Shown: piece by piece, positions 4,102 to 16,885 of the stretch | Layout: every line of letters starts with the position of its first letter | Position numbering within the stretch: position 1 is the first letter of the stretch | Assembly (NCBI RefSeq): GCF_050320075.1 | Contig: NZ_CP190018.1 | DNA length: 64,000 bases | Reading direction: 5' to 3' (one strand) | From: Escherichia coli | Lineage (GTDB): Bacteria; Pseudomonadota; Gammaproteobacteria; Enterobacterales; Enterobacteriaceae | The notes under the pieces: generated by a model | Told to the model about the DNA's origin: nothing | Seen by the model: only the letters and a program-made list of their open reading frames with translations | Database searches by the model: none | Made by a program: the position numbers and the translations under genes

Positions 4102-6693
4102 ATGCATCAATCTGGTTCTGTTTCTCTTTGTCGTTCCGCAATATCTGTTCTGGTGGCTACAGCGTTATATTCACCCATAGCATTGGCATCAACAGTTGAG
4201 TATGGTGAGACAGTTGATGGTGTTGTCCTGGAAAAAGATATCCAGCTGGTTTATGGGACCGCCAATAATACGAAAATCAATCCTGGCGGAGAACAGCATA
4301 TTAAAGAATTTGGTATAAGTAGTAATACTGAAATTAACGGCGGGTATCAGTACATTGAAATGAATGGCACCGCAGAATACTCAATATTAAATGATGGTTA
4401 TCAAATTGTTCAAATGGGTGGTGCGGCAAACCAGACTACCCTCAATAATGGTGTGTTACAGGTTTATGGCGCAGCGAATGAACCTACGATTAAAGGCGGG
4501 CGCTTAATTATTGAAAAAGATGGGATTACCGTCTTTGCCGCTATCGAAAAGGGAGGATTACTGGAGGTTAAAGAGGGGGGATTAGCATTTGCGGTAGATC
4601 AGAAAGCCGGCGGTGCGATTAAAACAACCACCCGGGCCATGGAGGTATTCGGAACAAACCGTCTCGGTCAGTTCGATATCAAGGATGGTATTGCTAATAA
4701 TATGCTGTTGGAAAACGGCGGAAGTTTGCGAGTTGAAGAAAATGACTTCGCTTATAATACCACTGTGGATAGTGGCGGCTTACTGGAGGTTATGGATGGC
4801 GGGACTGCAACTGGCGTTGATAAAAAAGCAGGCGGAAAATTAATTGTCTCAACGAATGCGCTGGAAGTGAGTGGTACAAACAGTAAAGGCCAATTTAGTA
4901 TAAAAGATGGTGTGTCAAAAAATTATGAACTGGATGATGGTTCCGGGCTCATTGTTATGGAGGACACGCAGGCCATTGATACTATCCTTGATGAGCATGC
5001 CACTATGCAATCGCTGGGAAAGGATACTGGTACGAGAGTGCAGGCAAATGCGGTATATGATCTCGGTCGATCAGATCAGAATGGAAGTATCACGTATTCC
5101 TCAAAAGCCATCTCTGAAAATATGGTTATCAACAATGGCCGCGCTAACGTCTGGGCTGGCACAATGGTTAACGTTTCAGTCAGAGGGAATGATGGCATTC
5201 TTGAGGTCATGAAGCCGCAAATAAATTATGCGCCCGCAATGTTGGTGGGTAAGGTAGTGGTTTCTGATAGCGCTTCTTTTAGAACGCATGGTGCCGTGGA
5301 TACCAGCAAAGCGGATGTTTCGCTCGAAAATAGCGCATGGACCATCATTGCCGATATCACTACGACGAACCAAAACACTCGCCTCAACTTAGCCAACCTT
5401 GCGATGTCTGGCGCAAATGTGATTATGATGGCTGAGCCAGTGACTCGTTCATCTGTGACGGCAAGTGCGGAAAATTTCATTACGTTGACCACCAATACCC
5501 TGTCGGGAAATGGCAATTTTTATATGCGTACCGATATGGCTAATCATCAGAGCGATCAGCTCAACGTCACCGGTCAGGCAACAGGTGATTTCAAAATATT
5601 CGTGACGGACACCGGTGCCAGCCCGGCAGCAGGAGATAGCCTTACACTGGTAACAACGGGCGGCGGTGATGCTGCATTTACGTTGGGCAATGCCGGAGGC
5701 GTTGTTGATATCGGTACGTATGAATATACCTTGCTGGATAATGGCAACCATAGCTGGAGCCTCGCAGAGAATCGCGCGCAAATTACCCCTTCAACCACTG
5801 ATGTGCTGAACATGGCAGCAGCACAACCGCTGGTATTTGATGCAGAACTGGACACCGTGCGTGAGCGTCTTGGTAGCGTAAAAGGCGTTAGTTACGATAC
5901 GGCGATGTGGAGTTCGGCAATTAACACCCGCAACAACGTGACCACTGATGCGGGAGCTGGCTTTGAGCAAACATTGACGGGCCTGACGCTCGGTATCGAT
6001 AGCCGTTTCTCCCGTGAAGAAAGCAGCACAATTCGCGGCTTGTTCTTTGGTTACTCTCATTCTGATATTGGTTTTGATCGCGGCGGCAAAGGTAATATCG
6101 ATAGCTACACCCTGGGGGCTTATGCCGGTTGGGAGCATCAGAACGGTGCCTATGTTGATGGAGTGGTGAAAGTTGACCGTTTTGCCAACACCATCCATGG
6201 CAAGATGAGTAATGGAGCAACAGCGTTTGGCGATTACAATAGTAACGGCGCGGGTGCTCATGTCGAGAGCGGGTTCCGTTGGGTTGACGGATTGTGGAGT
6301 GTTAGACCCTATCTGGCCTTTACCGGCTTTACCACAGATGGTCAGGACTACACGTTATCAAATGGCATGCGCGCGGATGTGGGAAATACCCGGATATTAC
6401 GCGCTGAAGCGGGAACGGCGGTAAGCTATCACATGGACCTGCAAAACGGTACGACGTTGGAACCCTGGCTGAAAGCCGCCGTGCGTCAGGAATACGCCGA
6501 TTCTAACCAGGTGAAAGTTAATGACGATGGCAAATTTAATAATGATGTGGCTGGAACCCGTGGCGTTTATCAGGCTGGGATAAGGTCATCGTTTACCCCG
6601 ACGTTAAGCGGTCATTTGTCAGTCAGTTATGGCAATGGCGCAGGGGTAGAATCGCCGTGGAATATTCAGGCGGGTGTGGTCTGGACGTTCTGA
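4102..6693 (+). CDS. yejO: Autotransporter (type Va) outer membrane protein, intact 863 aa
   Basis: N-terminal signal peptide, long Gly/Thr/Asn-rich repetitive passenger, C-terminal beta-barrel ending in WTF; SD-like AGGATGA upstream of the ATG. Confidence 0.75.
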   Translation: MHQSGSVSLCRSAISVLVATALYSPIALASTVEYGETVDGVVLEKDIQLVYGTANNTKINPGGEQHIKEFGISSNTEINGGYQYIEMNGTAEYSILNDGYQIVQMGGAANQTTLNNGVLQVYGAANEPTIKGGRLIIEKDGITVFAAIEKGGLLEVKEGGLAFAVDQKAGGAIKTTTRAMEVFGTNRLGQFDIKDGIANNMLLENGGSLRVEENDFAYNTTVDSGGLLEVMDGGTATGVDKKAGGKLIVSTNALEVSGTNSKGQFSIKDGVSKNYELDDGSGLIVMEDTQAIDTILDEHATMQSLGKDTGTRVQANAVYDLGRSDQNGSITYSSKAISENMVINNGRANVWAGTMVNVSVRGNDGILEVMKPQINYAPAMLVGKVVVSDSASFRTHGAVDTSKADVSLENSAWTIIADITTTNQNTRLNLANLAMSGANVIMMAEPVTRSSVTASAENFITLTTNTLSGNGNFYMRTDMANHQSDQLNVTGQATGDFKIFVTDTGASPAAGDSLTLVTTGGGDAAFTLGNAGGVVDIGTYEYTLLDNGNHSWSLAENRAQITPSTTDVLNMAAAQPLVFDAELDTVRERLGSVKGVSYDTAMWSSAINTRNNVTTDAGAGFEQTLTGLTLGIDSRFSREESSTIRGLFFGYSHSDIGFDRGGKGNIDSYTLGAYAGWEHQNGAYVDGVVKVDRFANTIHGKMSNGATAFGDYNSNGAGAHVESGFRWVDGLWSVRPYLAFTGFTTDGQDYTLSNGMRADVGNTRILRAEAGTAVSYHMDLQNGTTLEPWLKAAVRQEYADSNQVKVNDDGKFNNDVAGTRGVYQAGIRSSFTPTLSGHLSVSYGNGAGVESPWNIQAGVVWTF

Positions 6694-6755
6694 TAACAGA
6701 AAATAAACAGGCCGTGATGTGTCGCGGTCTGTTTATCGAATTAAATGCAGATATA

Positions 6756-6788
6756 AAAAAACCAACCGTAAAGGTTGGTTTTTTTTGG
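6756..6788. terminator. Bidirectional intrinsic terminator (ACCAACC-GTAAA-GGTTGGT flanked by A-run and T-run)
   Basis: Perfect 7-bp stem with A7 upstream and T8 downstream; directly followed by a degenerate copy of the tRNA-Pro 3' end, so it likely marks the island's right junction. Confidence 0.6.
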
Positions 6789-7162
6789 GATTTTTGGCAC
6801 GAGAGTAGTTTAATTGAGCCTGTAACTGTATGATTTTAAAGATGTAGATTAATTGAGTTTTGAAATCGTATATCCAAACGTATAACTAAAATGATTTGCT
6901 GCAAAAATGTACAGCTTTAACCGTTATCATTTTCCGGCTATTCGCTATGAAGCTGGCTGGTGGATAAGCACGGATAACCTGACATCTACAGCCGCCTTAA
7001 AAGCTGAACCCGACAAGCATATCGGCATCATGCCCACCAGCGTGACGCATTTTTTTAATTGCGCGGGCGTAAAAATTTGACGGGGCGGACAGTTCCATAA
7101 GTAATGGATTGCAGGAATTTCGCCCCCCCTCCTGAATGCAATTTTTCGTATATATATACAAA

Positions 7163-7290
7163 ACCACCCGTCCCACCTGTCCCGCCTGTCCCACTGGCAC
7201 CTAACAAATTGATTTTGTTAGAAATAAATTAGGTAAGGTAGGACAAGTCCAGGCTGTTTTGGGACAAGTTGGGGGGGAGGTGGGACAAGT
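7163..7290. repeat. Iteron block 1: three GTCCC units at ~10-bp spacing, 8-bp palindrome CTAACAAA-N5-TTTGTTAG, three GGGACAAGT units at ~21-bp spacing
   Basis: Read directly: TCCCACCTGTCCCGCCTGTCCCA at 7169-7194; palindrome at 7201-7221; G(G)GACAAGT at 7241, 7261, 7282. Confidence 0.6.
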
Positions 7291-7824
7291 CGAGCGAGTG
7301 AATCAAGCCGTGTTAGCGCGGTAAAGCGACAGTGCCGCCGCAATTTTGCGTTGTCGGGAGGCCACCGTAACAGCCACCATACGCGCACAATCTTCGGTGG
7401 TAACGCAATCCAGACGTGCGCAACATCCCCAGATAGGAAATCATTACCTAGCACAGCTAATTGCGCCAGAATCGATTACAGCGCGTTTCTGTGGCATTCA
7501 AGAACGGCTATCACTAGTGTATTGATATGTAATCCGCATATGAGTTTAAGCAACAAAATGATCCCCTTTCGAAAAAGGCACTAACCGTTTTTTCCGAAAT
7601 GATCCGTTGGTGATTTTGTAACTTATTGTTTTGTAGATGTAATTTTAAACTTGATAGGGTTATAAATAGGGGGCGTTTTTGTCAAGAATTGCAAATAATG
7701 CTCGTTTATTGTTCTTTGTTTGTTTGTTTTCTGTTCGTTGATGGGGGATCATTTTGCACTTTTTGGGGGATCATTTCGGAGGGGGGGGGCTGGCAACACG
7801 CCAGCACCCTCGATGCGTTTGTTT

Positions 7825-8034
7825 TTAGCAGTACTCCCAGTCTGTGGCTAGTAGGCTCTCAGGAGATAGCGTAACGCTATCCTCTGTGACGGGATTCAAC
7901 GCAATCAAATCGTTTCCGCGCCGTTCGAGAAAGACGATGTACGGAAGATGCCAGGCACTGCGGCGAGCTGGCACGCGTCGGCCTGGCTGCAACTTGTCGA
8001 GAATATCCACCAGCGAAACGTTCATGTGATTCAA
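7825..8034 (-). CDS. Hypothetical small protein (69 aa with TTG start; 66 aa from internal ATG)
   Basis: ORF with AGGAG about 5 nt upstream of the TTG; last gene of the ssb-finO-perC cluster; no recognisable family. Confidence 0.35.
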   Translation of the reverse strand: MNHMNVSLVDILDKLQPGRRVPARRSAWHLPYIVFLERRGNDLIALNPVTEDSVTLSPESLLATDWEYC

Positions 8035-8090
8035 AAAACTCCTGAAACGCTCTACAACTCAATAACACAAAAAATAATGCAGAACTGCCA

Positions 8091-8375
8091 CTATAAAACC
8101 TTGTCTGTCTGGTAGTTCCGCCAGACAGATTTTGCGATTTCTATCCCCATATCCGCCTGTGTGCGGTGTGCTGCCTCTCTCAAGCTCCCGAAATTATCCA
8201 GCATGACGGGCGAACGTGCTGCCTTGTGGATACATTTCGCGCGACGCTTTACTGCCTGTTCGCGCTCCTTATCGGTGTTCACCTGTTGCATGACCTCAGC
8301 CCATCGGGCCGCCGCTCTCCGGTACAGGCCTTTAGCCTCCAGATCTTCCGCTTTGCTGTCGTGAATCATACTCAT
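8091..8375 (-). CDS. PerC-family transcriptional activator-like protein (94 aa)
   Basis: Motif EDLEAKGLYRRAAARWAEV resembles the PerC family signature; start ATG overlaps stop of upstream gene (ATGA coupling). Confidence 0.5.
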   Translation of the reverse strand: MSMIHDSKAEDLEAKGLYRRAAARWAEVMQQVNTDKEREQAVKRRAKCIHKAARSPVMLDNFGSLREAAHRTQADMGIEIAKSVWRNYQTDKVL

Positions 8376-8908
8376 ACGCCAGCTTGCTCCTTGTTCGACT
8401 TACGTTTGCGCTTCTCTTTCAGTGCCATCAGTCGTGCTTCCGCGTCCTGCTGTTCCTGTTGTGTCACCTCGCCGCATGGCTGGCTATTCAGATCGTAACG
8501 CACGCCACCAGCCATTAAGGCACGGTAATAACGCGGAGAATGAGCATAAGATGCTAGCGCCGCACGTAATGCCCCTGACCCAAAAGCCAGCGCCCTGACG
8601 GCAATATCCTGTATCAGGTCTTCAAATATTCCTACCTTAAGCGGCTTCGGTGATTCCAGGCTGAATAATTCAGGCCATAGTTCAATAAGACGGTTAACGC
8701 GCCTGCGGTTTTTGCCCTGGCGTTTGGTCATATGCCGCCACGGTGTCGCCCCTGTGGGCTTCTGTTTGCGGCTCTGCTGTGCGTTCTGATTGCCGGGTAT
8801 CACTTTATGCGCTGATGTGGTTTTATCCTGCTGCTGTGTCGTCTGTGTCTTTTTCTGTGGTATGCCGTAAATGCCTTTCGGTTTTCTGCTAATAGTCAGT
8901 GTAGTCAT
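8372..8908 (-). CDS. ProQ/FinO-domain RNA-binding protein (178 aa) with basic low-complexity N-terminal extension
   Basis: C-terminal two thirds align by eye with E. coli ProQ N-terminal domain (PLKVGIFEDL..., LRAAL.SY..S.RY...GG.RYDL...PCGE). Confidence 0.6.
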   Translation of the reverse strand: MTTLTISRKPKGIYGIPQKKTQTTQQQDKTTSAHKVIPGNQNAQQSRKQKPTGATPWRHMTKRQGKNRRRVNRLIELWPELFSLESPKPLKVGIFEDLIQDIAVRALAFGSGALRAALASYAHSPRYYRALMAGGVRYDLNSQPCGEVTQQEQQDAEARLMALKEKRKRKSNKEQAGV

Positions 8909-8943
8909 TATTTGTTAACCTCTGTTAGTGAATCCACTGGCAG

Positions 8944-9369
8944 TTAAAATGGTATTTCGTCCTCATACGGGTCATCCTGCTGGCCCGTCTGCTGCTTTGT
9001 TCTGTTCAGTGCGTCAGTAGCCTGCCCTTGCTGTCCTTTCCTGCCTCCTGGTCGCACGGTTCGCGCACTGATTACGCTGCCTGCGATGACCTGCCAGCCC
9101 TGCCGCATTTCCCCGTTCTGGTCTGTCCACTGGCTTATCTGCATGTTACCCGCCACGCTCACCAGTTCGCCTTTCTGGTGTTTTGCCAGTGCATCGGCCT
9201 GTCTGCCAAACGCCAGGACGGATAACCACATCGTCGCTGTTCCGTCATATGCCTGACTGCACGGAAGGGGAACAGCCATACTCACCAGCGCCATTGGTGT
9301 TCCCTTGCTGGTGGTTTTTAACTGCGGGTCAGCCACCAACCGCCCGTAAGCTGATATTTGTGCCGTCAT
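8944..9369 (-). CDS. ssb: Single-stranded DNA-binding protein (SSB-like, 141 aa)
   Basis: OB-fold pattern similar to E. coli SSB (W..V.AFG, WTDQNG) and acidic C-terminal tail EDEIPF (cf. DDDIPF). Confidence 0.6.
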   Translation of the reverse strand: MTAQISAYGRLVADPQLKTTSKGTPMALVSMAVPLPCSQAYDGTATMWLSVLAFGRQADALAKHQKGELVSVAGNMQISQWTDQNGEMRQGWQVIAGSVISARTVRPGGRKGQQGQATDALNRTKQQTGQQDDPYEDEIPF

Positions 9370-9444
9370 ATTGTCTGCTCTCCGGTTTTAAATGTTGGTT
9401 GGATTTTTAATGTCCACCAGCCAGGCAAAAAATAACGCCTGCTG

Positions 9445-9580
9445 ACTTGTCCCAAAATGCTCCTAACTTGTCCCAAAATCACCTTAACTTGTCCCGCTCT
9501 TGTCCCACTTTTTCTGATATTACCCAATATAATTCAGTATGTTATGTGTGTTTCTCACAGGTTGGGACAGGTGGGACAAG
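9445..9580. repeat. Iteron block 2: four ACTTGTCCC units (~21-bp spacing) plus GGGACAGGTGGGACAAG; inverted copy of block 1
   Basis: ACTTGTCCC at 9445, 9466, 9487; TTGTCCC at 9500; GGGACAGGTGGGA at 9564-9576 is the exact reverse complement of TCCCACCTGTCCC in block 1. Confidence 0.6.
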
Positions 9581-9605
9581 AGTCTTTAAACCTACACGCG
9601 AGAGA

Positions 9606-11741
9606 TTAACCACCTTCATCATCATGATCCTGTGCAAGTAAAAGGCCGTACACCCTTAGTCGTGCCCCCTTCATGTGCTTAAGACGTGGTGTTCTGATTT
9701 GCCATCCTTCCCCGCTGGCTGGCTTTTTCAGCATTCCGGCTTCGTGAAGGGCTCTTGCTACGGCATCCTTGTTAAATCCCTTCGCCACATGCGATTTAAA
9801 TGGCTCCGGCAGGACGTAAAACAAAACAGGCTCACCGTAACGCCCCTCGCTTTCCCTGTAGCCGTACAGTTCTGAAATCGGCAGGCTTGCAGGGTCATAA
9901 TTGACAGGCGCAAACCTGCTCATGCCGTAGGCAGTAAGAAATGCCTCTGCCTGTTCAATAATCTGCCTGTGTTCCTTGTTACCCGTGCCGAACTCCTTCA
10001 CCCAGGCATTAAAGTTATGCTGAATGGCATCACAGCACGTCTGAACATTCCAGCCCGTAACATGACCGGACAGCACAAGCGCGGCCTCCAGTATGGCGAA
10101 TCGTTCCCCTACGCGATGAACCTGTTCGCCGTAGCTCTCCGGTATTAGGTTGCGCCACCGTTCACGGCACGCCCTTACCGTGTCCTTAGCCTCCTGCTGG
10201 TGGGCTGCCAGCCATTTAACCCATTCACGACCCGCCGCCCCGTGGTTTTCTGTCCAGGCGGCTTTTAACGCGTCTGCGTGCGCCTTTCCTGTGCTGTATT
10301 CGTGAAACTGCGTAGACTTCTCCATCGGCACGTTAAGCAACCTGACAAGCTGCCCCGCCTTGACTTTTATCCCCTCACTTTTGAGGAATGTTTCAACATC
10401 CATTTCTCCGGTACTGATCGCCACCGTGCGCCAGTGTTTTATCTCCCGGTTGCCGCCGTCCTTCGCCCCCTGTAATTTCCCGGAACCGTTAAACAGCGTA
10501 TAGGCTGACGTGGACACCTCCCGCGCGTTTCCGGCCTGGCCTATTTCATCCAGGGGTAACAGCCCGTCGTTGTGCGCCTCTGCCTCGTTAGCGATACCTA
10601 ACGCTGTGCCGTACCAGGTCAGCCGTTGCGCGTCCGGCTCTCCCCATAAACTTGATGCGATGTTCTGTGTGGTGGTTTTCCCTGCCGATGATTGTTCGAA
10701 AAGATGTACCCCGAAGCCGTCAGCGCCCACCAGCCCGATTAATGGTGCTGATAACGATACCGCCACACCCAGCATCATGGACGGATTACCACCAGCCAGT
10801 CGCGCCACTGTATCGCGCCAGCCCTCTGTCGTTCCTGCTACGGAATAACCATTAACGGCAGCCGTTTTTCCGGTAAACAGGATCGGTTTTTCAGACTCAC
10901 CAATGACTGAACCGTCCGGCATGATGTACGCGCCAAAATGCCACCCCGTTGTTGTGCTTAACTGCCATTCCTCATGGTTTCCGTTTAACTGCATCCAGTC
11001 AGCCAGGATAGCCCTGTATTTGCCGTTGGTTGTCACATTGAGTCCGTGGTCTTTCAGCAGCCGCCAGCCGTCACGGTCGCCAATGCCACCGCACGGGATC
11101 GCCATTGTGATGACTTCATGATTTGCTAATTTTTTCCAGCGCATCACGCGGTAATGCTCTTTACCGATCGTTCCCGTTCCCAGTAGTTCAAGCGGGGAAC
11201 ATAACCACGCCTCAGGCCGGATAATTTCGCCTGACTGTTTGTCAACTTTGGGCGTTACCCAGAAAACACCATCGGCGCGACTTTCAACGCGGGGTTTTAA
11301 TTCATCATCGCCCTGGCTTTCTGTGATTTTTTTCTTTAAGGGCAACACCAGACTTTCCCCGCGCTCGTATTCGTCTTTGAGGCGAGGCAACTGGTCGGAT
11401 AAATCCGCCGGGCTGGTGTCAGTTATCCCCGCATATTCGTATACGGTCTTCACGCCAGCCACAGCCAGCAATGTGACGATCTGTGTAAGGCTACGTTCAG
11501 TGATGTGCCCTGCGCGGTAAACACGCACACACTGACGGCTATCATCAATAATCTGATAACCGGTAATATCTTTCAGGTGTTCATCTGACAGAACGACAGG
11601 CGGCACATTGTCGGCGGCAATATGCTTACCTGCCCATTCCTGCCACTCTTTCGCATGGCTCCACGCATCACTACCCGCAAAAATGATAACCTCCGTCATT
11701 TTGTCGGCTGGCTGGTGCTTTAAGTTCGGTGCGCGTTTCAT
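9606..11741 (-). CDS. Replicative primase-helicase (TOPRIM-like N-terminus plus P-loop NTPase, 711 aa)
   Basis: Walker A-like SSAGKTT, large size, position downstream of int/alpA as in P4 alpha-type and PICI pri-rep genes; start overlaps upstream small ORF. Confidence 0.75.
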   Translation of the reverse strand: MKRAPNLKHQPADKMTEVIIFAGSDAWSHAKEWQEWAGKHIAADNVPPVVLSDEHLKDITGYQIIDDSRQCVRVYRAGHITERSLTQIVTLLAVAGVKTVYEYAGITDTSPADLSDQLPRLKDEYERGESLVLPLKKKITESQGDDELKPRVESRADGVFWVTPKVDKQSGEIIRPEAWLCSPLELLGTGTIGKEHYRVMRWKKLANHEVITMAIPCGGIGDRDGWRLLKDHGLNVTTNGKYRAILADWMQLNGNHEEWQLSTTTGWHFGAYIMPDGSVIGESEKPILFTGKTAAVNGYSVAGTTEGWRDTVARLAGGNPSMMLGVAVSLSAPLIGLVGADGFGVHLFEQSSAGKTTTQNIASSLWGEPDAQRLTWYGTALGIANEAEAHNDGLLPLDEIGQAGNAREVSTSAYTLFNGSGKLQGAKDGGNREIKHWRTVAISTGEMDVETFLKSEGIKVKAGQLVRLLNVPMEKSTQFHEYSTGKAHADALKAAWTENHGAAGREWVKWLAAHQQEAKDTVRACRERWRNLIPESYGEQVHRVGERFAILEAALVLSGHVTGWNVQTCCDAIQHNFNAWVKEFGTGNKEHRQIIEQAEAFLTAYGMSRFAPVNYDPASLPISELYGYRESEGRYGEPVLFYVLPEPFKSHVAKGFNKDAVARALHEAGMLKKPASGEGWQIRTPRLKHMKGARLRVYGLLLAQDHDDEGG

Positions 11742-12025
11742 TTCTTGCCCCCAGTAACCAGCATTTCGCGGATTTTGCGGATATATCTTGCTGCACGGTT
11801 CTGATTTACGGTTTCACGATGATCCACCAGCGTAAAATCACGCTGGAACTGATAAACAGGCATCACGCAGTCATATTCGTATCCTTCACGGCGGTAGGTC
11901 ATGCGTCGTTCACTCACGCCCTTAATCATTACCGTGCTGCCGTATTTATCGCGGTAAATATCGCCGTGCATGAATTCAGGACGAGTTTTACCGCTGGCAG
12001 TAAAGCCAGAATTTTTTGCTTTCAT
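11738..12025 (-). CDS. Hypothetical protein (95 aa), translationally coupled to primase-helicase
   Basis: ORF stop overlaps primase start codon; coding-like composition; no family recognised. Confidence 0.45.
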   Translation of the reverse strand: MKAKNSGFTASGKTRPEFMHGDIYRDKYGSTVMIKGVSERRMTYRREGYEYDCVMPVYQFQRDFTLVDHRETVNQNRAARYIRKIREMLVTGGKK

Positions 12026-12064
12026 TTATCGAATTACGTTTTTGTTAAAGCTGTATTAATGAGA

Positions 12065-12250
12065 TTAATGAACTGTCGCCACTTCAATTACGGCACGGAT
12101 CATCACCTGCGTGAACCCACAGCCGATTAACTCTTCTTTCAATATTGCGATAGCTGCATTAACGCTGGTGGCGTTCACGTTTTGCTGATTATCAATAACG
12201 TGGCCTTGATGATTTACAGCGCGTGCGGTTATCTGAAATCGCTTAAGCAT
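12065..12250 (-). CDS. Hypothetical small protein (61 aa)
   Basis: ORF preceded by GGGGTGAGG SD-like sequence; start overlaps stop of upstream small ORF. Confidence 0.4.
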   Translation of the reverse strand: MLKRFQITARAVNHQGHVIDNQQNVNATSVNAAIAILKEELIGCGFTQVMIRAVIEVATVH

Positions 12251-12431
12251 GCCTCACCCCCTGACGAATACGGGCAGCGAATACAGCAACACAGCCGGAC
12301 GGGCAACAGTTACGCGCTTCTCGTTCGGTTGATGCCTCGACGTGAACAATACGGGAATCAGTCGGATTAAAGATGACAAAGCGCCAGATAAATGTGTTTT
12401 GAGAATGTTCGAGGGTAGGGGTAGTAGCCAT
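12243..12431 (-). CDS. Small protein (62 aa), possibly Icd-like (host cell division inhibitor-like) as annotated in P4-like elements
   Basis: Strong SD AGGAGG 7 nt upstream of ATG; FIWRF and FAAR motifs recalled from Icd-like annotations (memory-based, uncertain). Confidence 0.45.
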   Translation of the reverse strand: MATTPTLEHSQNTFIWRFVIFNPTDSRIVHVEASTEREARNCCPSGCVAVFAARIRQGVRHA

Positions 12432-12640
12432 TTGGCAGCCTCCTGTAACGTTGGGATATACCCACCGCCGGAGGTGGTAAGCTCGATGGCGGTGGACTGT
12501 ACAGGGTTACCACAACTGGTGTTACAGGAAACCAGCCTGACCGAAGTCAGCCCCATACAGCCCACCATTGATAAGGCGTGCGCGTGCGCCGATACAAAAA
12601 AAGACGCCTGGCGCGTCTGTATCGCCTGTAACTCCAGCGG
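12432..12640 (-). ncRNA. Candidate structured regulatory RNA / leader (P4 immunity-like seqA-seqB-seqC arrangement)
   Basis: On the minus strand: GTTACAGG (12632-12625), intrinsic terminator, UUCG-tetraloop hairpin (12550-12537), complementary CCTGTAAC (12528-12521), then GTTACAGGAGG (12449-12439) overlapping the SD of the first ORF. Confidence 0.3.
12595..12618 (-). terminator. Intrinsic terminator inside the leader region (AGACGC-loop-GCGTCT followed by T7 on minus strand)
   Basis: 6-bp GC-rich stem, 5-nt loop, run of seven T on the transcribed strand. Confidence 0.5.
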
Positions 12641-13077
12641 GGTGGTAATCCCGACACCCGTTTTATGAGGTGCGCAGGGAGTATATCCCGTTTTCTTGCT
12701 CATGTGGTCGGATGTGTTGAAGGTGTGCCCACCACACAAATCACATTGCTCACCAGCCGGAAATATGGCATTGTTGGCGATGCATTCAAGTTTAATATAT
12801 GCCTTCTGGCGACCCTCTGCGGTCGCCTTTGTTTTATTCGTAAGCAACATATTTCTTTTGTCGTTTAAGCTATGCGATTGTACGTTTCCGTTTAAAACGG
12901 AAGTGCTATTAGTTCAATTAATTCGTTCGTACGGTTTGAACTGAATAATAACATCAGCCATAATTTTTTATGGTTGAACGAAAACCTGCCCCTGTTTGGG
13001 CATTTTTGCCAGTATTCATAATGTTCTCTCTTAATTGTTTTGTTGCTTGATAGTAATCAGGCCAGCGTTAATCACAC

Positions 13078-13269
13078 TTATGCTTCACGAGTTTCTCTCT
13101 CACGTTCTTTCAACCAGGCGAGTACCTCATCTTCATACCAGCCAATGCGACGCAGCCCGATACGGAATCCTTTGGGGAACCCGCCTTTGTTAACCATCTC
13201 CGTTAGGGTCGAATCAGATTTAATGCGTAGCAAGGCCTTTACCTCTGGTCGTAAAAGAATAGCCCTCAT
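13078..13269 (-). CDS. alpA: AlpA-family phage transcriptional regulator / excisionase-like (63 aa)
   Basis: Small HTH protein with LLR..EV......S.ST......G.FP....IG.R.IGW...EV..WL pattern; position between integrase and replication genes. Confidence 0.7.
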   Translation of the reverse strand: MRAILLRPEVKALLRIKSDSTLTEMVNKGGFPKGFRIGLRRIGWYEDEVLAWLKERERETREA

Positions 13270-13474
13270 CCTATTTCTCCTCTGGACAGCAAAATATCGC
13301 TTTTTGAATGAAAATAACGGTAAGTAATGTAATAAGCATACAAATCTATAAAAAAGACAGTCAAGAATTATTTAATAAGAGCTATGTGATTGGTTATTTT
13401 TTAATTTTCTAACATAAAAAGAATTTAAATGTTTCTCAAAATGAGACAGTATTGAGAAAGTAATGAGACACAAA

Positions 13475-13506
13475 TTAGCTCCTAACTGATACCAATTAGG
13501 AGCTAA
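13475..13506. promoter_or_regulatory. Perfect 11-bp inverted repeat TTAGCTCCTAA-N10-TTAGGAGCTAA in the AT-rich int-alpA intergenic region
   Basis: Read directly; lies just downstream of int stop and upstream of alpA promoter region; could be int terminator and/or operator. Confidence 0.35.
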
Positions 13507-13522
13507 TAATTTTTTAAATATT

Positions 13523-14767
13523 TTATTTTATTCCGCGTAATCCTCTGTGCCCGCTGGCGATGGTTGTTCCGGTTGCGGCTGCTTCCACAAAATCACCCCA
13601 CCAGCACATTAACACTTTACGTTTTTCCAGGTAGTTGCTTCGGTTGTATGCCCGTCTAACTTCGTTTGTGTCCACGTGGGCTAGTGCGGCTTCGATCACG
13701 TCAGGTTCAAATCCTTCTTCATTCGCCGCCGTGCTGAATATTGCGCGTAGTCCGTGAGATACCAGCACACCAGCGTAACCCATTCGTCGTAATGCTGCGT
13801 TTGCTGTCTGGCTGCTCATTGATTGCACTGGATTTTTAAGACTTGGGAAAACATGCTCCCTTCGTGCGCTAATCGGCTTCATGGCTTCAAGCACTGCCAT
13901 CGCCTGAGCGCAAAGGGGGATCACATGATCACGGCGCATCTTCATGCGTCCGGCTGGTATCGTCCAGGTTGCCGCCTCAAGGTTGATTTCTTCCCACCGT
14001 GCGGCGGAGGCTTCGGCTGGGCGGGTTGCGGTTAACAACTGCCACTCAATCAGCAATCTGGTTTGCCGTTCTATGCTGGCGATCGATAAATCGTGCATTA
14101 GCTGCGGTAGTTGTTCCGGTCGGATGGTTGGCATGTGCTTTTTGGTGGGGGAAGGGAATGCCTTGCGAACGTTCGCGGCGGTGTTGATGTCAATCAGTCC
14201 ACTGTTGGCAGCAAAATCCATCACTTCATTGATGCGCTGTAAAACGCGTTTCAGTGTTTCCAGGTTGCCACGTGCCTTGATGGGCGTGAGTATCTCAACA
14301 AAGCGGCGAGCGGTGAGAGTATCTATCGGTGTGTTTCCGATATACGGGAATACATATTTCTCTAGCGAGCGCCAGATGTCCTTGATCGTATTGTGGGCGA
14401 GATTCTGGTTTTTTTTCATTTCGTACCACAATGCGGCCACATTTTCGAACGTGTTGCCCTGTCGTCGAGCCTCTGCTTCGAGTTTTTGCCGTTCGTATTC
14501 CTGCGGGTCGGTTCCTGCCGCAATTAACGTCCTGTACTCGCTACGGCGTTTTCTGGCATCAGCCAGGGAGACTTCATCAAGCGAGCCCAAACTAATGATT
14601 GTTCGTTTTTTGTTCGATGGTCGATAGTAGTTGAATCGCCATAGTTTCGAACCAGACGGCTTAATAACGAGAAAAAGCCCGCCGCCATCCTGTAAGGTGT
14701 ATTCTTTTTCCGCTGGTTTAGCTGCTTTGATCTGTGTGGTGGTGAGTGGGGTCGCCTTTCTTGCCAT
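13523..14767 (-). CDS. int: Tyrosine site-specific integrase, P4-type (414 aa)
   Basis: N-terminal arm-binding-like domain (LTTTQIKAAKP...GGGLFLVIKPSGSKLWRF), C-terminal catalytic region with HGLRA and terminal tyrosine region; adjacent to tRNA gene. Confidence 0.85.
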   Translation of the reverse strand: MARKATPLTTTQIKAAKPAEKEYTLQDGGGLFLVIKPSGSKLWRFNYYRPSNKKRTIISLGSLDEVSLADARKRRSEYRTLIAAGTDPQEYERQKLEAEARRQGNTFENVAALWYEMKKNQNLAHNTIKDIWRSLEKYVFPYIGNTPIDTLTARRFVEILTPIKARGNLETLKRVLQRINEVMDFAANSGLIDINTAANVRKAFPSPTKKHMPTIRPEQLPQLMHDLSIASIERQTRLLIEWQLLTATRPAEASAARWEEINLEAATWTIPAGRMKMRRDHVIPLCAQAMAVLEAMKPISARREHVFPSLKNPVQSMSSQTANAALRRMGYAGVLVSHGLRAIFSTAANEEGFEPDVIEAALAHVDTNEVRRAYNRSNYLEKRKVLMCWWGDFVEAAATGTTIASGHRGLRGIK

Positions 14768-14973
14768 ACGTTTATGAATCCACGGGAAAAAACAGGTTCT
14801 AGTTATACGGATTTAGCTATGCGCCAGCCCGTATAACTAAACATATAACTAAAAAAAACGGCTGAAAACCACTGTTACCGTCGAATAACGATGACTAAAA
14901 ACAATAAAAAAACCCGCTATTCAATGAATTAGCGGGCTTATTTCATAAAAACGATAATTAATAATGGGCGATT

Positions 14974-15050
14974 TGGTCGGCACGAGAGGATTTGAACCTC
15001 CGACCCCCGACACCCCATGACGGTGCGCTACCAGGCTGCGCTACGTGCCG
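14974..15050 (-). tRNA. proL: tRNA-Pro (anticodon GGG), 77 nt with encoded CCA
   Basis: Reverse complement reads CGGCACGTAGCGCAGCCTGGTAGCGCACCGTCATGGGGTGTCGGGGGTCGGAGGTTCAAATCCTCTCGTGCCGACCA; cloverleaf with GGG in anticodon loop. Confidence 0.9.
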
Positions 15051-15124
15051 ACTCGTGGCTGTTAATACTACCGTTTTCCACACCGATTGCAAGTAAGATA
15101 TTTTGCTAACTGATTTATAATTAA

Positions 15125-16885
15125 TCAGTTAGCGATAAAACGCTTCTCGTCTGTCAGTACTTGCAATAACAAACTTAACTGTGGTTTTTCATCTTTCACT
15201 CTTTCACCACGTAAGTTGTAAGTACGGTATTTACCGTTATTGTTCAGCACCAGCGTCTTTTTCGGGGTGGTAATTGCCAGCGTATCGTTATCCGCGGCGG
15301 TAACCCAGTAATGACGGCGTTGAGAGTTGAACAAATCCTGACCTTGCGAATATTCGCTGGCAGGTGTGCTGACATGTAGCAGGCGTTGCATCAGCGTCGT
15401 CATCAGATCGGTATGATCAGTCAGAGCATTAATACGCTGCGCCGGCGTACCTGGCCAGTGAATCACTAATGGCACCTGCAGATGACCGTGGGACCAGTCA
15501 AAGGTTTCTTCCTCTTCGCTCAGCGGAATACCCCGACCGGCAGTGATAATCACCACCGTATTGTCCAGTTTGCCAGAATCACGTAGTGCATTGAGCACGC
15601 GGTTGATCTGGTCATCGACATTGCTTGCCGCCCGGCTATATTTCCGTGCAAATGCCTGCTGATTGCTGTCGTCAATGTTAGTGCCATTGAAAGAAACCCA
15701 CGAGAACCAGCGGTTATCTTCTTGTGCGTAGCGGCCCAGCCAGTTGATCCACTGCGTGGCGGTCTGCTCGTCGGATTGGGTGCGTACGCTCGGCATCGAG
15801 AAATCTGACAACAATGCCTGGCGATACAGCGGGCTGGTAAAGCCATCTGACGAGAATAACCCCAGCTGATAGCCTTGCTGATTAAGCGCAGTAATTAACG
15901 CCGCAGGCGTACGGGTCGACAGAATGCCGTCCATATAGCTCGGCGAGATGCCATAGAACAGGCCAAAGATGCCGTTGTCTGTAGTGTTGCCGGAGCTCAT
16001 ATGGCGCGTGAACGAAATATTTTGCTCAGCAAAACCTGCCAGCGCAGGCATCTGCTTCTCGAAGCGTGAGTAGTTCAGGCCATCGACAGTAATCAACAAG
16101 ACATTCTGCCCGGTGCCCATATCGCGATAGCGCAGTTCGCTTAACGGATACTGAACGGAAACGGCGTCTGGATTACCTTGCTCAATGAGACGGCGTTGAT
16201 ACTCCTGCGCATCAAGCAGACCATGCTTCTCAAGAAAACGTCGCGCCGTCATCGGGTACGAAAGCGGTAGGTTAGCGCGCTGCATGGTGATCGGGCGATA
16301 GAAGTTGGCATCGGCCCAGATATACACCACATGCGAGGCGATAAAGGCGATAAATAAGAATGCGGCCAGCGGGCGCGCGAAGCGCCGACGACGCGTCAGG
16401 CTGCGTAGCTTTTGCCAGCTCCACGTCGCAAACACCAGTTCAAGCAATAAAATAACCGGCACGCTGATGAACATCAGCTGCCAGTCGCGCGCCATCTCAT
16501 TTTCGTCTGGGTTGATAACCAGTTGCCAGACGATGGGATTAAGATGGAGATGGAAACGAGTAAAGACTTCGCTATCGATCAGTAATAGCGTCATTCCCGC
16601 CGTTGCCAGAATGACGGACAAAAACCTCATCAGCCTCTGGGAGCCGACGATAAAGGTCAGCGGGAAGAGGATCAGCAAGTAGGTGGCGAACACCAGGAAG
16701 CTGAAATGGCCGATAATGCTTACGTAGGAATAAATGCGACCAGCAAGCGTTGTCGGCCAGTCGGCGATAAACAGGTAACGGCTGCCAATGACGAGCGAAA
16801 GCAGAATATTGAACAGTGCAAACCAGTGCCCCCAACTGACCATCTGGGAGACTTTTTCACGGTAGCGCTGACGATGAGTTACCAT
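15125..16885 (-). CDS. yejM: Inner membrane protein YejM/PbgA (sulfatase-like periplasmic domain, 586 aa)
   Basis: N-terminal five TM helices plus large C-terminal domain; position next to proL. Confidence 0.8.
   Translation of the reverse strand: MVTHRQRYREKVSQMVSWGHWFALFNILLSLVIGSRYLFIADWPTTLAGRIYSYVSIIGHFSFLVFATYLLILFPLTFIVGSQRLMRFLSVILATAGMTLLLIDSEVFTRFHLHLNPIVWQLVINPDENEMARDWQLMFISVPVILLLELVFATWSWQKLRSLTRRRRFARPLAAFLFIAFIASHVVYIWADANFYRPITMQRANLPLSYPMTARRFLEKHGLLDAQEYQRRLIEQGNPDAVSVQYPLSELRYRDMGTGQNVLLITVDGLNYSRFEKQMPALAGFAEQNISFTRHMSSGNTTDNGIFGLFYGISPSYMDGILSTRTPAALITALNQQGYQLGLFSSDGFTSPLYRQALLSDFSMPSVRTQSDEQTATQWINWLGRYAQEDNRWFSWVSFNGTNIDDSNQQAFARKYSRAASNVDDQINRVLNALRDSGKLDNTVVIITAGRGIPLSEEEETFDWSHGHLQVPLVIHWPGTPAQRINALTDHTDLMTTLMQRLLHVSTPASEYSQGQDLFNSQRRHYWVTAADNDTLAITTPKKTLVLNNNGKYRTYNLRGERVKDEKPQLSLLLQVLTDEKRFIAN

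Follow-up and report, generated by a model that had tools for sequence, protein, structure and literature searches.

The far junction of a P4-type island in the 3' end of Escherichia coli proL and the recurrent one-sided erosion of its tRNA-derived repeat

The window, by which we mean the whole stretch of 64,000 nucleotides of E. coli DNA that was analysed, contains a single tRNA gene, proL, and an island of 8,166 bp that lies between the 3' end of this gene and the terminator hairpin which directly follows it in E. coli K-12. The annotation of the island was taken from the identical strain YZLc1-3. The features of the locus, in the order of their coordinates, are the following.

6755-6785, both strands: bidirectional terminator hairpin, native to proL (minus) and to yejO (plus); terminator scan and folds
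6787-6795, plus: native flank immediately beyond the 3' end of proL, GGGATTTTT, the same as in the empty site of K-12
6793-6805, plus: core remnant of the far junction (very probably attR), TTTGG^CACGAGAG; alignment with K-12 and with the intact far junctions of L004 and L028
6806-6817, plus: left terminus of the island, TAGTTTAATTGA; invariant across the island family, intact in 43 of 43 far junctions and in one circle junction
6806-14971, annotated genes all on the minus strand: P4-type integrative island, 8,166 bp; no copy in K-12 or in about 91% of complete E. coli genomes
6868-6890, plus: two putative arm-type repeats, GTATATCCAAA and GTATAACTAAA, at +63 and +75 from the first base of the island
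8091-8375, minus: PerC-family regulator, cargo; Pfam PF06069, E 2.7e-32
8372-8908, minus: ProQ/FinO-family RNA-binding protein, cargo; Pfam PF04352, E 9.6e-25
8944-9369, minus: single-strand DNA-binding protein (SSB); Pfam PF00436
9606-11741, minus: primase-helicase (DUF927) of 711 aa, analogue of P4 alpha; Pfam PF06048, E 6.5e-46, and phrog_1139 'DNA primase', E 1.8e-165
12485-12673, minus: C4 antisense RNA (12485-12572; Rfam RF01695, 78.7 bits) and isrK RNA (12597-12673; Rfam RF01394, 61.6 bits)
13078-13269, minus: AlpA-family helix-turn-helix protein; Pfam PF05930, 26.8 bits (cut-off 21)
13523-14767, minus: tyrosine integrase of 414 aa with arm-binding, central and catalytic domains; Pfam PF13356, PF22022 and PF00589
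14798-14853, two minus and two plus: four putative arm-type repeats matching GTATAACTAAA in the integrase-proximal arm; repeat search
14904-14946, minus: island-borne hairpin followed by T7, now 3' of proL; fold -17.3 kcal/mol, z -2.85
14972-14988, plus: core of the tRNA-side junction (attL), TTTGGTCGGCACGAGAG, intact over 17 bp; the same sequence in 10 of the 10 family loci that extend across it
14974-15050, minus: proL, tRNA-Pro(GGG), intact; ARAGORN and Rfam tRNA

Read from the tRNA gene, the island successively encodes the integrase, the AlpA-family protein, the isrK and C4 RNAs, an Ash-domain pseudogene, an Icd-like gene and a DUF4222 gene, the primase-helicase, the SSB, the ProQ/FinO-family protein and the PerC-family regulator, and it ends with a stretch of 1.3 kb. 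The integrase gene lies 206 bp from proL and is co-oriented with it; its three Pfam matches (Arm-DNA-bind_3, Phage_int_M and Phage_integrase) all have E values below 1e-24, and the R...HxxR...Y motifs can be recognized by eye in the translation (ATRPAE, HGLR, RRAYNR). Among the full-length integrases of the family, dN/dS is about 0.1 at dS values of up to 1.2, which argues that the enzyme is kept functional. The AlpA-family protein is a candidate excision and directionality factor. The scores of C4 and isrK both exceed the Rfam gathering scores, and the two RNAs mark an immunity region of the P4/P1 type. They are overlapped by a 198-aa Ash-domain open reading frame (12254-12850), which is probably not a real gene over its full length; the NCBI annotation has only an ash pseudogene there. 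The 1.3-kb stretch (6806-8090) has no convincing gene and none is annotated in YZLc1-3: all its open reading frames are of 82 aa or less and, when four of them were compared with PHROGs, three had no match and one fell into a family of undefined function. In some genomes a 57-aa hypothetical protein is annotated at the position of 6907-7080.

Repeats resembling GTATAACTAAA are present at both ends of the island and are putative arm-binding repeats of the integrase. The left pair stands at the fixed positions +63 and +75 in 40 of 40 family loci, including islands whose integrase is only 82% identical; over the whole window the motif with two mismatches is not enriched (12 occurrences for 10.7 expected). 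Another set of repeats, iterons of the GGGACAAGT type, forms clusters at 7231-7291, 9438-9495 and 9564-9580, in inverted orientation and about 2.2 kb apart, which flank the SSB, ProQ and PerC genes just downstream of the primase-helicase gene.

In K-12 the empty site is contiguous: the yejO stop codon is followed by the hairpin, by GGGATTTTT and by the 3' end of proL, the junction reading ...GGTTGGTTTTTTCTTGGGATTTTTGGTCGGCACGAGAGGATTTGAACC... The hairpin lies there 12 nt past proL, in agreement with the first-pass annotation, which had taken the bidirectional terminator at the right edge of the element for the native proL terminator; in the window it folds at -15.6 and -17.7 kcal/mol on the two strands (z -4.7 and -4.1). 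Within 6762-6779 of the window, the loop of this hairpin reads GTAAA in most strains, whereas several, among them E. coli 042 and E. albertii (L005, L020, L025, L036), have the reverse complement TTTAC; GTAAG, GTAAT and GCAATA are further variants. The loop appears to have been inverted inside a conserved stem. The neighbouring yejO gene (4102-6693) is an intact open reading frame of 863 aa in the window, is split by IS5 in K-12, and is annotated as frameshifted or with an internal stop in many of the sampled genomes.

Since the window matches K-12 up to 6805, where it departs into TAGTTTAATTGAG..., and resumes the match at 14972-14988, the two repeats are the junctions of the island. The comparison with an island-free proL-yejO junction that the first-pass annotation had suggested thus places the break at 6805/14972, and the attR-like reading of the right junction is supported, the K-12 site breaking at both repeats. 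The element itself had been given as 6790-14988: its ends were correctly sought in the repeats, but the island-specific DNA is 6806-14971. The letters of both repeat strings were likewise correct and their coordinates were off by one to three bases: GATTTTTGGCACGAGAG stands at 6789-6805 (the span 6786-6805 adds TGG) and GATTTGGTCGGCACGAGAG at 14970-14988 (the start at 14971 was off by one). The empty arrangement was found in about 4,944 of 5,426 complete E. coli genomes with a 151-nt query at a coverage of at least 80%; a far junction like that of the window was found in 282 complete E. coli genomes, while 52 have 80% or more of the island.

The 10-bp core that the two repeats had been said to share, GGCACGAGAG, does occur exactly twice in the window, both strands counted, at 6796-6805 and 14979-14988. 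That ten bases are short enough to match by chance, with the island ending elsewhere, has a negligible probability and can be ruled out, the expectation being 0.08 with no case of two or more matches in 100 dinucleotide-preserving shuffles, the empty site of K-12 and of about 4,944 genomes breaking exactly at the repeats, a perfect 17-bp repeat standing in relatives, and conserved putative arm repeats lying inside both ends. A better or longer boundary repeat was sought across 6500-15300 and none was found. The next-best direct repeat, which pairs 6867-6905 with 14830-14868, consists of the internal arm-type repeats and marks no boundary.

As ARAGORN sets the tRNA-Pro gene at 14974-15050 on the minus strand, 14974-14988, which reads TGGTCGGCACGAGAG on the plus strand, is the 3'-terminal 15 nt of proL, and the intact core TTTGGTCGGCACGAGAG of the tRNA-side junction spans tRNA positions 62-76 plus 2 nt. 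Integration at this site is shown for the window, and the related island family uses the same one. Two relatives (L004 and L028) keep the perfect 17-bp direct repeat of TTTGGTCGGCACGAGAG at both junctions. In the window the far copy had been described as degenerate; it is indeed imperfect, but through a single deletion of 4 nt and not through a scatter of mismatches. The 13-nt remnant at 6793-6805 is the native 3' end of proL minus TCGG (equivalently GGTC), with the gap between 6797 and 6798 (TTTGG----CACGAGAG), so that tRNA residues C70-A73 are gone and, on the tRNA strand, CTCTCGTG (positions 62-69) is fused straight to CCA. As these 4 nt are lost, a precise restoration of proL from this copy would no longer be possible, and the loss of the island would leave a 4-nt scar in the tRNA gene.

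The remnant at 6793-6805 is therefore very probably the attR of an 8.2-kb island of the P4 type, integrated into the 3' end of proL by its own tyrosine integrase. This reading is supported by the empty site, the boundaries, the 17-bp repeat of the relatives, the putative arm repeats, the constrained integrase and the circle junction of a relative. In the integration reaction, the integrase would catalyse site-specific recombination into the 3' end of proL, to which the circular element would bring its own copy of the last 15 nucleotides of the tRNA plus 2 nt. Recombination inside TTTGGTCGGCACGAGAG would have coupled the island copy to the body of the tRNA. proL is thereby left whole, with a putative new terminator borne by the island, and the original chromosomal 3' end, together with the native terminator, has been displaced by 8.2 kb, to 6793-6805. 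The flank now found at the tRNA-side junction, GGGCGATTT, differs from the native flank GGGATTTTT, and we infer that the hairpin at 14904-14946 is the replacement terminator.

The circle junction comes from a scan of public collections for the 20-mer CACGAGAGTAGTTTAATTGA, a pattern that requires an intact CACGAGAG. In a metagenome contig of 2,136 bp (L024), the integrase end is joined to the left end of the island via an intact core (...GGTAGATTTGGTCGGCACGAGAGTAGTTTAATTGAGCC...), and the contig is colinear with the circle junction predicted from the window, at 96.2% identity over 2,083 bp. It would come from a close relative, present as a circle or in a tandem array, and bears on that relative and not on the copy of the window. 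By eye, the conserved core of the circle junction is the 31-bp GATTTGGTCGGCACGAGAGTAGTTTAATTGA, centred on ACGAGAG.

The far junction was then compared across the family in 43 copies, of which complete E. coli genomes contributed 24, and contigs of metagenomes, viromes and reference genomes the other 19. In 41 of them between 1 and 13 chromosomal bases are missing, always abutting CACGAGAG, with the following distribution.

0 bases missing: 2 junctions
1 base missing: 4 junctions
2 bases missing: 12 junctions
3 bases missing: 2 junctions
4 bases missing: 12 junctions
5 bases missing: 7 junctions
6 bases missing: 2 junctions
10 bases missing: 1 junction
13 bases missing: 1 junction

These form nine deletion alleles (1, 2, 3, 4, 5, 6, 10 and 13 nt, and a complex one of 3), which all share one end, the phosphodiester between tRNA G69 and C70, and extend outward from it into the chromosome. 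The 19 contigs are a biased sample, because the scan pattern required CACGAGAG; the 24 complete genomes, out of the 282 carriers, were obtained with a 200-bp query across the junction, free of this requirement, but as they were drawn from the 60 matches most similar to the window some bias remains. In all of these 24 genomes, chosen without the core, the island side CACGAGAG|TAGTTTAATTGA is intact, TAGTTTAATTGA being also outside the search criterion in the 24 junctions concerned; the left terminus TAGTTTAATTGA is probably a core-type site of the integrase. The tRNA-side junction is likewise intact in the 10 of 10 loci that include it.

Microhomology is absent from the deletions of 2, 6 and 10 nt, and amounts to 2 nt at the 4-nt allele and to 1 nt at the 1-nt allele. 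The same deletion lengths recur on at least six flank haplotypes and in many combinations of flank and island type. Within each of the pairs L037/L035 and L034/L031, 90 bp of chromosomal and 190 bp of island sequence agree throughout save for a deletion of 2 nt in one and of 4 nt in the other, and the near-identical L004 has no deletion. Identical haplotypes that differ only in the deletion indicate a repeated change in place.

Both intact far junctions lie beside rearranged islands, L004 having a truncated integrase and L028 an IS1 composite. A link between an intact far junction and a dead integrase was considered and set aside, since two cases are too few and the rearranged L026 and L027 have eroded junctions. 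L004 (NZ_CP032237, 20097-21507) is a remnant of 1.4 kb in which both junctions, some 700 bp from the left end and integrase codons 1-159 are left; several other matches to the 200-bp query (H62-H67) have the same length and identity and may be the same remnant. Other relatives (L027, NZ_CM184352; L028, NZ_CP082349; L026, NZ_CP182371; L047, NZ_CP063487) contain diverse insertions: a type I restriction-modification system accompanied by genes of DprA and of the RecQ family, a BCCT transporter flanked by IS1 and placed between alpA and int, a group II intron and IS3 or IS110 elements, and part of a restriction enzyme that depends on phosphorothioation. The island site seems to accumulate defence and mobile DNA.

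Outside E. coli, when the far junction was sought in one genome per species, E. albertii alone matched, which gives no view of other genera, save for one virome contig (L007, IMGVR_UViG_2931335292_000001). This contig, whose host is apparently other than E. coli, has an island of the family beside a different flank, a hairpin CCAGCCGTAAAAGGCTGG followed by GGGGAATTTTGG|CACGAGAG, with the same 4-nt type of erosion.

When a synthetic empty site bearing the 4-nt deletion was used as a query, it outscored the normal empty site in three island-free genomes: STEC384, O111:H11 8D and NADC1036 (L041, L042 and L043; NZ_CP091029, NZ_CP076264 and NZ_CP077469). Their sequence, GGGATTTTTGG----CACGAGAGGATTTGAACC..., is that of a proL without C70-A73 joined to the native flank. 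The three sites are 1-2 SNPs apart over 452 bp, and may represent a single event. Such a scar is the product expected on loss of the island from a 4-nt-eroded junction, which could occur by an integrase crossover inside CACGAGAG or by a deletion between the residual 10-bp repeats. The first-pass annotation had predicted an excised circle and a repaired chromosome: a circle-type junction is indeed seen, in the 96%-identical relative, but the chromosomal junction left by loss from an eroded site is not repaired and proL remains 4 nt short. The scarred proL does not encode a CCA in register; its tRNA is 74 nt long in the NCBI annotation and 76 nt long according to ARAGORN.

For the missing 4 nt, we incline on balance to regard them as one allele of a recurrent erosion that starts at G69|C70, the point where the integrase would cleave, and that results from abortive cleavage followed by faulty repair and not from random decay. 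An abortive event at the far junction would expose its chromosomal side to nibbling by faulty repair, whereas the island side, bound by the integrase, would be preserved. This proposal, built from the comparison of sequences, requires that a single-strand cut be turned into a two-strand deletion in E. coli. A stronger version, in which the far junction would be a mutational hotspot directed by the integrase, repeatedly cut between tRNA positions 69 and 70, where the chromosomal side is progressively lost and the target tRNA is held hostage, can only be put forward tentatively.

The place of strand exchange bears on what an eroded island could still do. Exchange at TGGTCGG, the 7 bp that are eaten, fits the data and would make the eroded copies dead for excision; exchange at CACGAGAG, in the centre of the 31-bp core, fits them also, and would leave the eroded copies mobile, accounting for the scar as well as for the intact core of the circle junction. 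The dyad symmetry of the core, inspected by eye, was too weak to place the region. It is possible, although we think it rather unlikely, that the eroded junctions do still recombine via CACGAGAG, the mobile island leaving a scarred proL behind and the damaged tRNA in turn stabilising the island (a 'tRNA hostage'). The retention of CACGAGAG at both junctions, the centring of the 31-bp core on ACGAGAG, the exact identity of the scar in three empty sites with the product of a crossover to the right of the deletion, the strong purifying selection on the integrase despite 95% of eroded junctions, and the intact core in the circle junction of the relative all point in this direction. However, a deletion between the 10-bp repeats independent of the integrase could equally give the scar, and the three scarred genomes, so close to each other, may count for a single event.

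The main rival to abortive cleavage, to which we would give a somewhat lower probability again, is that a 15-nt fragment without function decays neutrally or by replication slippage, independently of the integrase, the common end point being due to a GG/GG microhomology and to sampling. The 1-nt allele is equally well described as a homopolymer slippage, and the 4-nt allele as a deletion between two GG dinucleotides, so that slippage at replication adequately explains these two; no function is known for the fragment; and imperfect far junctions are commonplace in tRNA islands, as in the GI-pheV islands (PMC11537424). Neutral decay does not account for the common end point of the nine alleles, nor for the deletions of 2, 6 and 10 nt in which microhomology is absent, and it sits poorly with the identity of the neighbouring sequence, 90 bp on the chromosomal side and 190 bp on that of the island, in strains that differ only by the deletion, with the return of the same lengths on six or more flank haplotypes, and with the untouched island side in the 24 junctions sampled without the core.

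It is more improbable still that the ragged junction was made at integration, or that the island entered a proL already scarred, each length recording a separate integration event. Scarred empty sites do exist and could serve as targets, and near-identical islands are found in different chromosomal backgrounds with different deletions. Yet tyrosine recombinases exchange strands conservatively, the scar is present in only 3 of about 4,944 empty sites when 41 of 43 occupied sites are eroded, and the pairs whose local haplotypes are identical except for the deletion are better explained by a change in place.

If the erosion depends on the integrase, it would offer a sequence-only way to locate the cleavage position of a P4-type integrase, and the same comparative signature could, if true, map the cleavage sites of other tRNA-island integrases from genome data. 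It would also explain why the distal repeats of tRNA islands are frequently 'imperfect', and would suggest that islands can reach fixation owing to the damage that losing them does to the target tRNA gene. Should the junction be the hotspot tentatively proposed above, the chromosome could not regain a whole proL, and the cells that lose the island would inherit a truncated tRNA gene, as in the three scarred genomes.

How does the island stand among known elements? P4 and the elements of the CP4-57 type have tyrosine integrases of the P4 family that target the 3' ends of tRNA or tmRNA genes. The island has much of their anatomy: a tRNA-adjacent and co-oriented integrase with an arm-binding N-terminal domain and an AlpA-family partner, an immunity RNA of the C4 type, an Icd-like gene, an Ash domain, an alpha-like primase-helicase, two inverted iteron clusters, whose arrangement recalls the two-part ori/crr replication origin of P4, and a core re-supplied by the element that is the 3' end of the tRNA. 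The target is proL here, in contrast to leuX or ssrA in the P4 and CP4-57 elements of the comparison. The identity of the integrase to entries of the phage collection does not exceed 56%, and is 46% for one phage gene that bears the annotation CP4-57 integrase; against 50,697 phage records the longest nucleotide match of the island is 262 bp, and with nothing beyond that match it has no named phage or satellite relative in the collection.

The core set of P4-like phage satellites comprises int, alpA, alpha, epsilon, sid, delta and psu. The island has the integrase, AlpA and alpha-type primase-helicase of this set, and it also has the marks of a P4-type tRNA island: a tRNA-adjacent integrase, repeats of the tRNA 3' end at both boundaries and a matching empty site. 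For sid, delta and psu, nothing was found in the YZLc1-3 annotation or in the Pfam and PHROGs scans, and the short open reading frames of 6806-8090, of at most 82 aa, leave no room for them. The island thus behaves as a P4-type integrative island and yet falls short of complete membership among the P4-like satellites.

Degenerate distal repeats are a textbook feature of tRNA islands. In the literature searched for the proL island and for eroded far junctions, we found no nested series of deletions with a single anchor, no recurrence on identical haplotypes and no scarred tRNA genes in island-free strains. A close case is that of the GI-pheV islands of E. coli, where a P4-type integrase at a tRNA 3' end is likewise accompanied by imperfect far junctions (PMC11537424). 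In many strains, Table 1 of that paper records a far-junction deletion of 1 nt in the 3' strand of the acceptor stem (TTCGATTCCGAGTCCGG-CACCA, G69-G71), near the position that is eroded in the proL island, and its authors tie imperfect or missing repeats to the stabilisation of the island. The table gives this one deletion allele and some substitutions; a nested series, scarred empty sites and a mechanistic reading are absent from it.

The island of the window is ROD34, a prophage-like element already catalogued in enteroaggregative E. coli 042, for which Table 2 of Chaudhuri et al. 2010 (PMC2808357) lists a length of 8,169 bp, a tRNA-Pro and a cargo of proQ-like and PerC-like genes. In the copy of 042 (L005) the genes stand in the same order and the integrase shows 97% identity; its far junction carries a different and complex 3-nt lesion, GGC|CACGAGAG. 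The entry for ROD34 in that paper gives the site as 'tRNA-Pro' only, with no att sequences (PMC2808357), and the present result fixes the boundaries of ROD34 at 6806-14971 of the window and its target at positions 62-76 of proL, which is useful for annotation and for the design of excision PCR. As first noted, the finding is then ordinary, a catalogued island that is now precisely delimited, and it is the recurrent one-sided erosion of its far junction that is worth following up.
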